NCBI RefSeq assembly: GCF_024972775.1
Contig: NZ_CP092282.1
Location: 3,747,525 to 3,811,524, forward strand
Origin: Dehalobacter sp. DCM
GTDB taxonomy: Bacteria > Bacillota > Desulfitobacteriia > Desulfitobacteriales > Syntrophobotulaceae
Length of the DNA: 64,000 bases
Direction: 5' to 3'
The notes beneath the pieces were generated by a model that saw only the letters and a list, made by a program, of their open reading frames with translations, ran no database searches and was not told the DNA's origin. The first letter of the stretch is position 1. Each line of letters starts with the position of its first letter. The translations under genes and the position numbers were made by a program. Shown piece by piece: positions 30,149 to 35,329 of this stretch.

Positions 30149-31357
30149 TTAATCCTCTTCTCCCGCTTTAAAGTTATAGATGGGTTTGATGATCTTGTCG
30201 ATGTCCGCGGTGGGCCCGATATTGTTTACGATATCATCCATATTTTTATAGGCCATTGGGCACTCATCGAGGGTATCTTTATTCACCGACGTGGTATAGA
30301 CATCCTTCATTTGTTTCTTGAATTCGGATAACGTAAACGCTTGTTTGGCCTTCGTCCGGCTCATCAGCCGCCCTGCCCCATGGGGCGCAGAATAATTCCA
30401 GCCTTTATTCCCCTTGCCGATGCAGATCAGGCTGCCGTCCCGCATATTGATTGGAATCAGCAGGCGTTCCCCTGCCTTCGCGGACACCGCTCCCTTACGT
30501 AAGATCATCGCTTCGGTATCGATATAGTTATGGGTGGTCGTGAATTGTTCCACTACGTCGAGCTTCATTCCTTTGACGATCTCCATGACCATGGCTTTAC
30601 GGTTCAATTCGGCAAACTGCTGAACGATTTTCATATCATGGATATAGTCATCAAACAGATTTCCGCTGACATAAGCCAGTGCATAGGGGACATCCGTAAT
30701 CACTTGACTTTTCAGTTCTTTTAAAGCCTTGGCGATCTCTTTATCCCGACCTTCGGCTTTATAGCGGGCAATCAAGGCTTCCAGATCCGGCTTTTCATTT
30801 TGGTTTAACTGTTGGTAACCGGCTTCCTGATAGTATTTGGCTACTTCCAGCCCCAAATGACGGCTGCCCGAGTGCACGACAACATACAAATCGCCTTCCT
30901 GGTCTTTATTGACCTCAATAAAGTGATTGCCTCCGCCTAATGTACCGATACTCTTCTGCGCTCTGTCCAGTTTGACTGCCTTCAGACAGCGCAGCGCCGT
31001 CAGGTCGATCTGTTCGTTATACCGGTGCGGGGTCTCCCTTACGGTATAGCCCGACGGAATGGATTCATAGATCAATTTATCCAGCTTCTGCAGCTCCAGC
31101 CGTTTATTGCTGATCCGGATGGTTTCCATCCCACAGCCGATATCCACCCCAACTAAGTTGGGAACCACTTTATCGGTAATCGTCATGGTAGTGCCGATGG
31201 TACACCCGGCCCCGGCATGGACGTCGGGCATGATCCGGATTTTACTGTCTTTGGCAAATTCCTGGTTGCATAGCGTTGCGATCTGGGACGCTGCGCCTTC
31301 CTCTAGTGTATCTGTAAATATTTTGGCTATATTATATTTTCCTCTAATTTCTTGCAT
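30149..31357 (-). CDS. rtcB: RNA-splicing ligase RtcB
   Basis: Full-length 402 aa with metal-ligand motifs (PDVHAGAGCTIG, HNYI..., HGAGR). Confidence 0.9.
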   Translation of the reverse strand: MQEIRGKYNIAKIFTDTLEEGAASQIATLCNQEFAKDSKIRIMPDVHAGAGCTIGTTMTITDKVVPNLVGVDIGCGMETIRISNKRLELQKLDKLIYESIPSGYTVRETPHRYNEQIDLTALRCLKAVKLDRAQKSIGTLGGGNHFIEVNKDQEGDLYVVVHSGSRHLGLEVAKYYQEAGYQQLNQNEKPDLEALIARYKAEGRDKEIAKALKELKSQVITDVPYALAYVSGNLFDDYIHDMKIVQQFAELNRKAMVMEIVKGMKLDVVEQFTTTHNYIDTEAMILRKGAVSAKAGERLLIPINMRDGSLICIGKGNKGWNYSAPHGAGRLMSRTKAKQAFTLSEFKKQMKDVYTTSVNKDTLDECPMAYKNMDDIVNNIGPTADIDKIIKPIYNFKAGEED

Positions 31358-31445
31358 GGTAAACTCCGTTCTGTTCTTATCACTACATTTGTTTTAATCT
31401 AAAATCCGGCCCCTCATACACGCGCAGCGGGTTGCCGCGGTTCCT

Positions 31446-32564
31446 TTAATCGCTCACTTTTGCCGTCAACAGATGATTCAGCTGTTCGAGCAGAGTACCC
31501 CCGCCAGTCAGGGAAATACTGCCGATCTTATCACAGATCTTCTCCAGGAATTCCAGTTCTTTTAAGCGGTATAGTGTTTGGTTTTCCTCCATCAACTTGG
31601 CTGTATTCATAAGACTCCGGGTCGAAGCGATCTCCTCTCTACGGGTGATGACGTTGGCCTGGGCACGTTTTTCAGCCACCAGTACGGTATTCAAAATATC
31701 TTTAATATCGCCGGGCAAGATAACATCTTTAACCCCGACAAAGACAAATTCGGCCCCGAAAGCAGTACTTTTCTCTCTTAATTTCTCTAGGACAAAAGTT
31801 CCGACTTCTTGCTTTTTCTGAAGCAGGTCATCCAATCGCAACGAACCGACGTATTCTCTTAAAATAAGCTGCAGCATAATGTAAAGCTGTTCCTCGAATG
31901 ATTTGATTTCAAGCACCTGTACGGGATCAACAATTTTATACTGGCAGACAAAGTTCAAGCGTAAGCTGATCTTATCTTCCGTCATGATTTCCTGTCCGTT
32001 CAAATCCAGTTGCTGCTGCCGCATATCCAGATTCCTGACGGCAACCTGAACGGGACTCTTCCAGTAGAAATACTTCCCGGGATTTAGTGTTTTCTGCATA
32101 ACGTTATTGTAATAAAGAATCCCTTTTTCATGGTCGGCAACTTCCCAATAGCTTAAGTATCCCGCCAGCTTCGGGTGATAAAACAACGCCGGTTCGATGC
32201 CGTTTTGGATTTCCGGATTGCGGATATCAATGGTGATAAAATCATGCTGTTTCAACAGCTTCCAGTATGCATATTTACCGGATGGCAGAACATCGATAAA
32301 TTTGCCGTCTTCATAATGGAGCACAAGCTCGTAATCCCGAACATCGATGACTGCAAGCTCCTTCAGCAGCTCGGAATCTTCCAGGAAGAGATTGATATTT
32401 TTACCGCTTGTCTCAAATCGGTTATTAATATCCGTAATTATTACTTTATATCTGCCAAATGGATTGAGGATATATCTTCCTGGTTTCAAGCATTTAACAT
32501 AATTGCCGTCCTTAAATAATAATCCTCTCTCGTCATTTTTAATCCTTACTCTCATAACATCCAC
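31446..32564 (-). CDS. cytoplasmic SPFH/band-7 domain protein with N-terminal triple PGxY beta-repeat extension
   Basis: The C-terminal ~200 aa are SPFH-like (LRLNFVCQYKIVDPVQV..., coiled-coil tail). There is no TM; the N-terminus carries three repeats of KPGRY/PSGKY/NPGKY. Confidence 0.65.
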   Translation of the reverse strand: MDVMRVRIKNDERGLLFKDGNYVKCLKPGRYILNPFGRYKVIITDINNRFETSGKNINLFLEDSELLKELAVIDVRDYELVLHYEDGKFIDVLPSGKYAYWKLLKQHDFITIDIRNPEIQNGIEPALFYHPKLAGYLSYWEVADHEKGILYYNNVMQKTLNPGKYFYWKSPVQVAVRNLDMRQQQLDLNGQEIMTEDKISLRLNFVCQYKIVDPVQVLEIKSFEEQLYIMLQLILREYVGSLRLDDLLQKKQEVGTFVLEKLREKSTAFGAEFVFVGVKDVILPGDIKDILNTVLVAEKRAQANVITRREEIASTRSLMNTAKLMEENQTLYRLKELEFLEKICDKIGSISLTGGGTLLEQLNHLLTAKVSD

Positions 32565-33045: not shown

Positions 33046-34053
33046 TTATTCGGCTGCAAACTCATAGGATCTTTTTACGCGGCGTATAACTTCATCTATA
33101 ATCCGCTGCGGCGATATGACTTTGACGTAAGGCCCCAGGGAGAGAATATTTCGGATCAGATTCTCTTCATCAAATACGTAGTAGTTAAGGCGCAGTTCAT
33201 ACGTGTTTTCGGCAATCTGCTTCGCCGATCTGTCCATCCCCGAGAAGCACATAAAGCTTCTTTCCATGGCTCCTTTTTTATCTGTCACTTCCAAAACAAC
33301 CGGCTCTGGAGCAACCTTCTCCCATAGCACTTTTTTGGCTGTCTCGCGGTCGATGGGTATGGTTTCCTGCACAACCCTTATTTTCGACAAGGTCGTAAGA
33401 TTGGCCATAATCGGGCGGTTATCATCAATTGAAAACATGGATACCCGAAATCTGCCGTCACGCATGGCGTACTCCAGACTTACCGGTAACGCCAGCTTAT
33501 CTTTGTGCACATTGCCTTTACGGTCTCTATTATGATAGCGAATAGCTTTCTCATTAATTAATGCCTCCAAAATGAAACGGAAGTTTTCGCGATAACTGTC
33601 GGGCTCAGTCATTTCCGGGAGTTGAACAGTATTGGTCATCTCCATGTATTCCTGACGAATGGGGGTATCCATATCTCTTAATCCCGCCTGAATTATTAAG
33701 CGTGTCTGATCAGAAAGAACCAGGGATATGTCGGGCTGGTCGAGAAGTGCTTTTAGCCACGCTTTTTCTATATTGGTAAAACGGATTGGCAGCGGGGGAT
33801 CAGCAAAATCCTGAACAGAAGGGAAATAATGTCCATTTTTCTCTGTTAATATATGAAAATTTTCGCTGTGGTCACACCGGTTCAGAACATAATCGACAAA
33901 GGAGCGTTGGTTTTTGCCGATAACCTTTTGATCGAATTCTCCATCATCAATGATTCGGATGATCTCCTGTTTCGTTTTCCCGACAGCGCATTCATTAATG
34001 ATTTGCATCATCAGATGAAAATAGCGGTTTTTGACTTCATCAAACAACTCCAT
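33046..34053 (-). CDS. HTH-WYL domain transcriptional regulator (PafC-like)
   Basis: N-terminal wHTH, central WYL-type beta-barrel region, C-terminal WCX-like extension. Start at MELFDE. Confidence 0.6.
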
Positions 34054-35329
34054 AAGCAGAAAGCGTCTCCTTCCAGTCAGCCGTAAGTTTATCTGCCAAA
34101 TTCGCATTCTCCAGGACGCGGATATTTCCTGTATAGCTCCTGATCCAAGGAATCATTTCCCCACTGTCGCTGACCTGCAGGGTATAATGGTAGCAGCCTT
34201 CCGTGATCTTCTCCATGACCCCGCCGGGGGCTTCATTTTGAATTTTGCCGATCAAATAGCCTTCCGTTGCTTCATCAATAAGGATCTCCAGTTTAACATG
34301 CTCCGGTTCCTGCCCATCGCCCAAAGCAACACTGGACCAGCTCCAGGACATGCATTCCTTATATATGGAATCATAATCTTCCCGGCAAAACTTCTCCTGC
34401 AGACAGGCGATACGCGCGATCCTGTCCAGCCTGGATAGAATACACTTGCCGTGATTATTGAAGGAGACAAGATAAAACCGGCCATGAAGGGTATCGTAGC
34501 GAATTTTATAAGGCTTCAAAATTTTATAGGAATCTCTGCCGCCGCTCTTCGGGGTATGGTAATAAATCTTGATAGCCACCCGCTGATGAATGGCCTTTGT
34601 TATTTCCCATAAGATTTGTTCTTCAATGACCGGATGAAAGTGAATATGACGATAATTAAATAAATGCCCGTCACGAAACAGGCTATATCTTTCGTAGGTG
34701 AGATAATCCTGAAGGGTCTCTTCACAAAAATAGCCGATAGTTGACGGAAACAGAATATTTTTAAAGAGAGAGACTGCCCGCAGTACCTCCTCTATTTGCC
34801 CGATACTCAATTTCCCCAGGATGTCCGGTGCTACAGCATATTCCTTGGATCGGTTTGCTGAGACGCAGCAAAGAATCCCTGTCTTTTGGCTCATTTCAGC
34901 AAGTTTTCTTTCCACCGTCTTGCTGCTGATCATATCCGCGTTGATCAGGCCTTCCCGGACTAAGGCATCCATGATAACTTTGGTTGAAACAGGCTGTGGT
35001 GCCTGAGTTTGCACGTACATCAAAATCAGATAATAGGTGACCAGATCTGTTCGGGTAAAACTCTTGGTCTTGTAGGTGGAAATCAGAAAATTGTCCGTAT
35101 GCTGCAAAGAATCGTAGGTCAGGCTCAAGAGCTTATAGCGTCCGTCTTTATCCGTCCGGATATATCGATCTTCCACATACTGCTGTATACGCCGGATCTC
35201 ATAGCTTACTTTACGGGAACTGATGTTTCGTTTGTTTTCAAGATCATCAAGTGAAAAACAACCGTATAGAAAACAGTCGCGTAGAATATCCCGGATAATA
35301 TTGTAATGCTTGATGAAATCGCTGAACAT
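34040..35329 (-). CDS. HTH-WYL domain transcriptional regulator (PafB-like)
   Basis: Paralog of the downstream gene with the same domain order. The genes overlap by 14 nt, consistent with a co-translated pair. Confidence 0.6.

Follow-up and report, generated by a model that had tools for sequence, protein, structure and literature searches.

A putative WYL-switched RNA-repair cluster in Dehalobacter sp. DCM joins RtcB, a soluble stomatin-like protein and a tRNA-like RNA

Introduction

PafBC, a WYL heterodimer of mycobacteria and actinobacteria, activates a DNA-damage regulon upon binding of single-stranded DNA (ssDNA), DriD is activated by ssDNA as well, and WYL1 binds single-stranded RNA (ssRNA) and boosts Cas13d. 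Here we describe a pair of WYL genes, WYL-A and WYL-B, that stands beside the genes of the RNA ligase RtcB and of an SPFH (Band-7, slipin) protein in Dehalobacter sp. DCM. The locus (30149-35329, minus strand) lies in a stretch of 64,000 nt, referred to below as the window, and appears to be an RNA-repair cluster in which an RNA ligase, a soluble stomatin-like protein and a tRNA-like RNA of ~400 nt are switched by the WYL pair.

RtcB systems are widespread in bacteria, but to our knowledge their physiological triggers and cofactors are understood only for the version with RtcR, Ro60 and Y RNA in enterobacteria. There, RtcR combines a CARF domain with a sigma54 AAA+ activator and senses tRNA fragments with cyclic-phosphate ends (PMC7790460). 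The YrlA RNAs, which are circularly permuted tRNAs (10.1101/312249), are co-transcribed in rsr-yrlBA-rtcBA operons and yet are components of ribonucleoprotein particles (RNPs; PMC7790460; 10.1101/312249). According to the summary in 10.1101/312249, Burroughs and Aravind predicted in 2016 (Nucleic Acids Res 2016;44:8525) a further version, in which RtcB stands beside a Band-7 protein and a tRNA-like "b7a-tRNA" that is interchangeable with Ro60/YrlA. RlaP was named in Burroughs and Aravind 2016, as related in the RlaP preprint, and an SPFH gene is present in the rtc locus of P. aeruginosa (PMC13086221). The association of RtcB, SPFH protein and RNA is therefore already known as a computational prediction, and the searchable literature yielded no experimental study of the Band-7 version. 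The regulon of the WYL pair, its operator and the gene fusions described below look new: our literature search returned no paper in which WYL proteins are connected with operons of RtcB, slipin or Ro60, although Burroughs and Aravind 2016 may mention such a link.

Results

Conservation of the neighborhood and gene fusions

The minus strand of the locus carries four co-directional open reading frames (ORFs), in the 5' to 3' order WYL-A, WYL-B, SPFH/slipin and RtcB, with a 480-nt gap (32565-33045) between WYL-B and the SPFH gene that holds a terminator, a promoter/operator element and a conserved structured RNA. A previous reading of the window from its letters alone (the sequence-only reading) had proposed that these genes form one module, and had named beforehand the conservation of the neighbors in relatives as the point on which the proposal would stand or fall. 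Using the SPFH protein as sole query, we fetched 79 genomic loci, clustered their ORFs together with those of the window and mapped the gene order (80 loci). The neighbors proved to be conserved. The WYL-A/WYL-B tandem adjoins the SPFH gene in 26-27 of the 80 loci; in Clostridia it lies upstream and reads in the same direction, and in Paenibacillus, Pelosinus and Vallitalea it is divergent. Of the 80 loci, 23 carry RtcB and 16 carry a fifth recurrent family, the "RNA ligase-associated Pol-beta" nucleotidyltransferase RlaP (PF10127, 1.5e-95); one or the other occurs in 32. KptA/Tpt1 also recurs at SPFH loci, and the SPFH-rtcB order of the window is found in L001, L002, L003, L006, L007 and L019. 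The repair enzymes follow the regulators: RtcB or RlaP accompanies 23 of the 27 WYL-positive loci versus nine of the 53 WYL-negative ones (Fisher p=4e-9, phylogeny ignored). As 41 of the 80 loci consist of the RNA and the SPFH gene alone, the locus counts describe an RNA-SPFH unit as the constant core, with the WYL pair and the repair enzymes as a linked accessory set.

Searches with the WYL proteins led to the same pair in the company of the same RtcB clade. WYL-B relatives (~40% identity) are encoded in Ro60(TROVE)-RtcB-WYLA-WYLB operons, where RtcB is 53-60% identical to that of the window. In Clostridium felsineum, Clostridium sp. C8-1-8 and Desulfosporosinus acididurans, a WYL-A relative is followed by a 753-aa WYL-B::RtcB fusion, and behind this fusion stands either DUF8224 or a YrlA-like RNA with TROVE remnants. 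The fusion suggests an additional, physical contact between the pair and the ligase. Exhaustive searching for WYL-B gave 888 representatives, four of which are 760-846 aa long with the WYL-B match at the C-terminus. P0398 is a WYL-A::WYL-B fusion with both halves recognized by BLASTP; the other three candidates are judged by their length, the C-terminal WYL-B match and Pfam matches to WYL and WCX. Such Rosetta-stone fusions (WYL-A::WYL-B and WYL-B::RtcB) predict a physical complex.

DUF8224 (~530 aa) follows the WYL-B::RtcB fusion in L080 (9551-11131) and L082 (9664-11277), and the promoter element described below precedes it in L082, L083 and L172; the protein might be a third scaffold, as an alternative to SPFH and Ro60. 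In L081 (Desulfosporosinus acididurans), a YrlA-like RNA (9602-9877; 33.8 bits, below the Rfam threshold) lies behind the promoter element, and the fragmented TROVE ORFs that follow suggest a Ro60 gene in decay next to a WYL-A / WYL-B::RtcB operon that is intact.

The idea of the sequence-only reading that the same module is run here by a different sensor fits with an arrangement in Citrobacter freundii. There, a slipin gene (34% identity over the full length), a leader with a T arm and RlaP form a unit behind a sigma54-type promoter, divergent from rtcR. Because this unit adjoins RtcR, the WYL pair takes the position of RtcR in the window.

A promoter element shared by differently organized operons

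The RNA-SPFH-rtcB operon of the window is preceded by a conserved element, summarized as TGCAAACTTTTTGTCT, 22 nt, TATACT. Across differently organized operons the motif reads tTGCAAA[CG]TTTTTGTCTgtaa, followed at a fixed distance of 21-22 nt by TATACT or TATAAT, and it has a single site in the 64-kb window (33041-33026), compared with 0.08 expected by chance. A weak -35-like TTTAGA is located at 33021-33026, 17 nt before TATACT, and transcription of the operon would start near 32991.

Among 90 loci, the motif occurs at 22 sites in 14 sources and precedes RNA-SPFH units, WYL-A, Ro60, the YrlA-like RNA and DUF8224. It was absent from the 77 loci in which WYL-A is distant (only ~22% identical) or missing. 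An unbiased scan of metagenome contigs for the 18-mer returned 120 stretches, 35 with a -10 hexamer at the right distance and 85 without; 22 of the 35 correctly spaced matches sit at these modules, compared with one of the 85 others (p=5e-14), and this single exception is a match truncated by the end of its contig. The motif is asymmetric, occupies the -35 position and co-occurs with one WYL-A clade; from this we infer that it is the operator of a WYL-A/WYL-B heterodimer. A k-mer enrichment across all WYL-positive loci, including Paenibacillus, revealed no general operator. As the motif emerged only from the comparison of loci with closely related WYL-A, the pairs of the Paenibacillus type presumably use another site. 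A motif search of the window did not find the operator at the promoter of the WYL pair itself, which lies ~35 nt before the ATG of WYL-A.

The metagenome contig Ga0207834_1003270 (L166) contains two copies of the TGCAAASTTTTTGTCT promoter element (700-717 and 2528-2545). An RNA-SPFH unit and a Ro60 unit stand there in tandem, each with its own copy in front, and the SPFH and Ro60 scaffolds can thus coexist in one regulon.

A covarying tRNA-like RNA precedes the SPFH gene

The component that is most tightly tied to the SPFH gene had been overlooked by the sequence-only reading. Nhmmer searches with the gap found homologous DNA directly 5' of the SPFH gene in Clostridia, Paenibacillus and Thermoactinomycetaceae, and after two iterations the RNA was located directly 5' of the slipin gene in 77 of the 80 sources. 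The RNA of ~400 nt consists of a circularly permuted tRNA-like module and a long-stem domain, and both show strong covariation. The structure was derived with RNAalifold from 49 aligned copies and extended by the T arm, the anticodon-like hairpin and two more pairs. In the resulting 46-pair structure, 91.2% of the cells were paired, compared with 36-48% when the partners were slid, and compensatory changes occurred in 37 of the 46 pairs, compared with 15-22 when slid; none of 500 shuffles reached the observed values. Covariation was also found in helices 1-3 of the tRNA-like module. We relied on covariation because single-sequence folding of the gap was uninformative (z = -2.0 and -0.2).

A covariance model of the tRNA-like module (R1) scored the copy of the window at 54.8 bits and the metagenomic copy in L166, on which it had not been trained, at 72 bits. 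The leader of the Citrobacter slipin gene reached 20.9 bits (E=9e-4), and Y-like RNAs beside Ro60 reached 15-25 bits. Placed on two genuine tRNAs in tandem, R1 bridges from the T arm of one to the D and anticodon arms of the next, which illustrates the permutation. At gathering thresholds, Rfam gave no match upstream of the SPFH gene in the window and 11 related loci. ARAGORN called no tRNA upstream of the SPFH gene either, in the window or in related loci, and neither it nor the Rfam tRNA model called one at the module, which is not a canonical cloverleaf and has its arms in permuted order. The RNA of the window did not match the Rfam YrlA family (RF02553) even at E<=10; in L019, positions 6575-6672 matched YrlA with 36.4 bits (E=2.7e-6), which falls short of the gathering score of 69. 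Relatives insert an extra YrlA-like tRNA-like module into the 5' segment of the RNA, a module that the window does not have.

In the alignment, most copies of the anticodon-like loop have 7 nt and read "CU NNN AA", the middle triplet being variable. This "anticodon" differs between species (UUC, UCC, GUC, GUU, UUU, GAG, GAA and others, in L021/L016/L042 etc.; alignment A4, columns 73-81). Several of the triplets equal anticodons of tRNAs targeted by anticodon nucleases (Glu, Lys, Asn, Asp), which may be chance.

The terminator scan found none between the RNA and the SPFH gene, where the spacer is only ~30-60 nt long, and the Shine-Dalgarno sequence AAGAGGTGG is free of conserved helices. The SPFH-rtcB transcript therefore begins with the RNA. 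In Paenibacillus sp. CCS19 (L034), three copies of the RNA (882-1193, 3067-3379 and 8608-8920) and two SPFH genes occur within 11 kb, and no SPFH gene was called behind the first RNA copy.

The two WYL proteins

WYL-A is 100% identical to the NCBI entry "WYL domain-containing protein [Dehalobacter sp. DCM]". It carries a canonical WYL domain (GRFYL...RLDRI, aa ~239-307; Pfam 3.9e-5) and a WCX domain (aa 345-422; 3.7e-6), and its N-terminus gave weak Pfam matches to the Mga helix-turn-helix (HTH) at aa 15-58 (E 0.074) and to the winged-helix HTH_27 at aa 27-71 (E 0.16). This HTH-like region is the most conserved part of the protein: the N-terminal ~100 aa are 66-68% identical to the copies in the Ro60-type operons, compared with ~39% for the remainder. 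In WYL-B, Pfam matched WCX alone and no WYL domain, and the WYL-WCX profile of PADLOC matched both proteins (WYL-A 2e-22, WYL-B 1e-8). The ATG of WYL-B at 34053 is not the first of its ORF. We placed the start there because the 335-aa NCBI protein, to which the product is equal, agrees with homologues and fusions that begin with MELFDE; with this start, the two genes overlap by 14 nt, and the overlap is conserved in relatives.

The two proteins had been read as overlapping paralogous HTH-WYL genes with the architecture of PafB/PafC. The overlap holds, and BLASTP aligned WYL-A and WYL-B with 25% identity over the WYL domain (E=2e-4), and hhalign aligned them over 274 columns (E=3e-4). Judged by their sequences, they are distant paralogues whose relationship is weak but significant. 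The HTH is supported indirectly, in WYL-A by the weak Pfam matches and in WYL-B by the predicted model and its fold match. This model (predicted local distance difference test, pLDDT, 81.9) matches the folds of BrxR, DriD, PafBC, CapW and WYL1, and aligns over 243 residues with the full-length DNA-bound structure of DriD. The likeness to PafBC stood for architecture and fold and did not extend to membership in the family at the sequence level. Direct sequence searches of the PDB with WYL-A and WYL-B returned noise only, profile searches of the PDB reached PafBC with E=0.037 (WYL-A) and 1.7 (WYL-B) and BrxR also below significance, and no NCBIfam model matched either protein.

The hairpin of the terminator behind WYL-B was kept in the alignment of co-directional relatives.

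RtcB and the soluble SPFH protein

RtcB keeps the metal-binding and His-GMP motifs of the catalytic center (DxHxGxG, GGGNHF, HSGSR, HNY and HGAGR). Its gene lies 88 nt downstream of the SPFH gene, and a terminator scan of the minus strand between the two (31358-31445) found none. The SPFH product is 100% identical to the NCBI entry "slipin family protein [Dehalobacter sp. DCM]", which fixes its start at the ATG at 32555. Pfam placed Band_7 at aa 146-311, and aa 139-342 resemble stomatin (PDB 3bk6, 6e-16). The Kyte-Doolittle mean over 19 residues peaks at 1.2, and the protein therefore lacks a membrane anchor. The N-terminus consists of three units of ~67 aa, each with [PS]G[KR]Y (at aa 25, 92 and 159). 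That RtcB is co-directional with an SPFH protein free of transmembrane (TM) segments and extended by N-terminal PGxY repeats was confirmed in this way. In the AlphaFold model (pLDDT 77.7), three 5-strand beta units precede the SPFH core and a long C-terminal helix, and the third repeat merges into the stomatin-like core. The solved SPFH relatives include PDB entries of 16 and 26 chains, which are oligomeric rings; all solved SPFH proteins known to us oligomerize.

The SPFH partner had been called unexplained. This did not hold, since its link to RtcB and a tRNA-like RNA had been predicted in 2016, as far as 10.1101/312249 relates it; the role proposed for it is that of a Ro60-like scaffold.

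Features of the locus and flanking genes

The features are listed in Table 1.

Table 1. Coordinates of the features in the window, with their source or description.
Feature	Position	Strand	Description
WYL-A	34040-35329	-	429 aa; putative N-terminal winged HTH, WYL, WCX
Extended -10 TGCTATAAT of the WYL-A/WYL-B promoter	35362-35370	-	Read from the sequence
WYL-B	33046-34053	-	335 aa; degenerate WYL domain (GRFRV) and WCX
Intrinsic terminator of the WYL-A/B transcript	33033-33063	-	12-bp stem across the WYL-B stop codon, then TTTTTG; terminator scan
Conserved promoter/operator element TTGCAAACTTTTTGTCT	about 33026-33043	-	Putative WYL-A/WYL-B binding site
-10 hexamer TATACT of the RNA-SPFH-rtcB operon	32998-33003	-	Promoter scan; fixed spacing across loci
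RNA, 5' segment	32902-32991	-	Conserved in the clostridial group (alignment, nhmmer)
tRNA-like module	32829-32901	-	Circularly permuted
T stem-loop GGGGTTCGACTCCCC	32884-32898	-	Direct reading
Closed acceptor-like hairpin	32865-32882	-	
D-like element	32851-32864	-	
Anticodon-arm-like hairpin	32832-32850	-	7-nt loop CUGAGAA
Long-stem domain	32585-32814	-	Nested long-range helices; internal loops GGAUACCG and CCUnAAGC...CUCCGCC conserved
Stem helix P1	32792-32814/32585-32607		
Stem helix P2	32758-32761/32608-32611		
Stem helix P3	32737-32751/32618-32630		
Stem helix P4	32723-32729/32635-32640		
SPFH/slipin	31446-32555	-	369 aa; ATG 32555 inside ORF 31446-32564
RtcB 3'-phosphate/5'-OH RNA ligase	30149-31357	-	402 aa; Pfam PF01139, E=9e-64

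By Pfam analysis of the neighboring proteins, the module is flanked by housekeeping genes (molybdopterin oxidoreductase, SpoVA, YitT and TelA). A defense-island or mobile-element context was rejected on account of these flanks, of zero phage matches and of plasmid matches that are chromids or mis-assigned chromosomes.

Two sigma54-dependent activators border the module, at 28370-30139 (+) and 37267-38481 (-), and neither is RtcR. The former is PrdR-like in its AAA+/HTH part only and has an N-terminal domain of 270 aa; the N-terminus of the latter is short and gave a weak match to a double zinc ribbon. The activator at 28370-30139 was considered as an equivalent of RtcR and rejected, because it matches RtcR in the AAA+/HTH part only (residues 275-578; 288 bits compared with a cut-off of 650), has no match in the CARF region and lies in the wrong, convergent orientation. 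A 60-aa ORF (MEEQINKFNWTAFIETTVV...) is located at 35494-35676 (+), within the 467-nt gap between the WYL-A promoter and a glyoxalase-family gene.

A fragment of a second rtcB gene is present at 24238-24405 (-), with 66% identity to aa 269-324 of the intact RtcB and interrupted by stops. It lies just upstream of, and co-directional with, a gene of the CCA-adding enzyme/poly(A) polymerase family with an HD domain (22282-23649, -), and could be what is left of a second tRNA-repair locus, ~6 kb away from the intact one.

Discussion

A proposed mechanism and its rivals

The interpretation that we consider probable, with some reserve, is that the locus is an inducible RtcB/Band-7/tRNA-like-RNA repair module in which a PafBC-like WYL heterodimer stands in for the usual CARF-sigma54 activator, RtcR. 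WYL-A and WYL-B would bind the asymmetric element through their N-terminal winged helices, and the domain of WYL-A would bind single-stranded nucleic acid, most plausibly RNA fragments produced by ribotoxins or stress nucleases. Such sensing by the canonical WYL domain is suggested by analogy with PafBC and DriD (ssDNA) and with WYL1 (ssRNA), together with the fold match. Once it has bound its ligand, the heterodimer could activate a promoter without a proper -35. The SPFH protein may oligomerize into a soluble ring or cage and bind the long-stem domain of the RNA, which would parallel Ro60 on the stem of Y RNA, and the tRNA-like module might recruit or mimic tRNA-type substrates. RtcB would then reseal RNAs that were broken with 2',3'-cyclic-phosphate and 5'-OH ends.

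Several points weigh against this proposal. Binding of the motif by the WYL pair, the ligand, activation as opposed to repression and the binding of RNA by SPFH are all deduced; the HTH of WYL-A is weak (E about 0.1), and the similarity to PafBC is not significant (E 0.037-1.7). The WYL-B::RtcB fusion suggests a coupling to the ligase that a pure transcription factor would not need. In 41 of the 80 loci the SPFH gene and the RNA stand without a repair gene within 7 kb, and the two may therefore function independently of RtcB. The element with its fixed spacing could instead be the promoter of another sigma factor, and the RNA could act as a cis-regulatory leader, as there is no terminator between RNA and SPFH.

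The fusion is also the starting point of the first rival explanation, which we regard as unlikely, though worth keeping in mind: the WYL pair might chiefly be a physical subunit that binds damaged ssRNA, passes it to RtcB and forms a complex with RtcB and the scaffold RNP, with the conserved promoter element read by some other factor. However, the best structural matches are the DNA-binding regulators BrxR, DriD, PafBC and CapW, the most conserved part of WYL-A is its HTH-like N-terminus, the conserved DNA element co-occurs with this WYL-A clade only, and the pair of the window has its own promoter and terminator, apart from the enzymes. Fusions of enzymes with regulators are moreover common and compatible with regulation, and both roles can coexist.

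A second rival takes the RNA as a cis-acting leader of the slipin-rtcB mRNA rather than as an RNP component; in one variant it would be a decoy or sentinel, where cleavage of the anticodon loop or processing by RNase P/RNase Z sets the stability or translation of the mRNA. The RNA always follows the promoter and precedes the SPFH start codon, at a short distance (~30-60 nt) and with no terminator in between, as a leader would, and the 7-nt "CU NNN AA" loop resembles real anticodon loops. The Shine-Dalgarno sequence is, however, not sequestered by conserved helices, the size and the nested long-stem architecture go beyond the needs of known leaders, the related YrlA RNAs are RNP components in spite of their co-transcription (PMC7790460; 10.1101/312249), and the RNA tracks the presence of SPFH and not of any regulator. 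A leader in place of an RNP component therefore seems quite improbable to us.

That the WYL pair merely happens to adjoin slipin-rtcB and regulates, for example, a defense or DNA-damage regulon is effectively refuted: more distant WYL-A::WYL-B fusion proteins do occur in contexts without RtcB or SPFH, and the 41 loci with RNA and SPFH alone lack the pair, but the association recurs across gene orders, orientations and lineages (Clostridia, Paenibacillus, Pelosinus, Vallitalea), it is reinforced by gene fusions and a shared promoter element, and zero defense genes flank the module in the window.

A more far-reaching version of our proposal, which we offer as speculation and hold to be rather unlikely, is a soluble vault-/Ro-like RNP. 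In such a particle, an SPFH ring or cage would surround the stem domain, and tRNA-handling factors would dock onto the tRNA mimic. WYL-B would physically bring in RtcB, and the WYL pair would be sensor/activator and particle subunit at once. This would amount to a tRNA-repair organelle that regulates itself and whose core could be exchanged for Ro60/Y RNA or DUF8224.

Significance of the locus

The locus offers a complete, compact and testable Band-7 version of the RtcB systems, whose promoter element is defined and whose candidate sensor has two subunits, and it raises the question whether the WYL domain here reads damaged RNA, given that its relatives PafBC and DriD are activated by ssDNA. 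It adds a large, covariation-supported RNA that is covered by no Rfam family. Ro60 with Y RNA and SPFH with the tRNA-like RNA replace each other as cassettes that share the promoter in front of them and the RtcB/WYL core beside them, and no genomic argument known to us speaks more strongly for the two scaffolds doing the same job. A soluble branch of the SPFH proteins may thereby gain a function, in a superfamily that is otherwise known to us only as one of membrane scaffolds.

Comparison with known systems

In contrast to the membrane SPFH proteins (stomatin, HflK/C, QmcA-NfeD), the SPFH protein of the locus has neither a TM helix nor an NfeD partner, and its neighbors are RtcB and WYL genes. 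It differs from the vault shell protein MVP in having just three beta units, which the Pfam Vault repeat did not match.

With YrlA, the RNA of the window shares the order of T stem-loop, closed acceptor-like stem-loop and D stem-loop, and RtcB as genomic company; its relatives score 34-36 bits with the YrlA model, whose gathering score is 69. The anticodon stem is, however, a closed hairpin with a 7-nt loop and not the entry to a Ro-binding stem, the stem domain is unrelated, and the partner is SPFH instead of Ro60.

Compared with the RtcB/Band-7/b7a-tRNA systems, as far as their prediction is summarized in later preprints, the locus agrees in the co-directional order of SPFH and an RtcB with intact motifs, in the tRNA-like RNA beside the SPFH gene, in RlaP and KptA as frequent partners and in the exchange of the Band-7 unit for Ro60/Y RNA. 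It differs from that description in its RNA, which combines a permuted module with a covarying stem of ~230 nt and is not a cloverleaf look-alike, and in its regulator, a WYL pair with a defined putative operator instead of RtcR.

Like the rtcR-controlled rtcBA and rsr-yrlBA-rtcBA operons, the locus combines adjacent genes of a putative dedicated regulator, a tRNA-mimic RNA within the transcript and RtcB. RtcR is absent from the window, a tblastn search of the window gave no Ro60, and RtcA was absent among the 18 neighboring proteins run through Pfam. Unlike those operons, the locus has a WYL pair as its candidate sensor, a sigma70-type -10 and no sigma54 promoter.

With PafBC, the locus has in common that natural fusions of the two halves exist, and the relationship to PafB/PafC is one of fold only. 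Its two adjacent, overlapping and paralogous genes both encode WYL-WCX proteins, with a putative HTH that is weak in WYL-A and predicted from the model in WYL-B. Unlike PafBC, DriD, BrxR and CapW, WYL-A carries ~100 extra residues, the putative regulon is RNA repair and not DNA repair or phage defense, and WYL-B is fused to the RNA ligase in some genomes.

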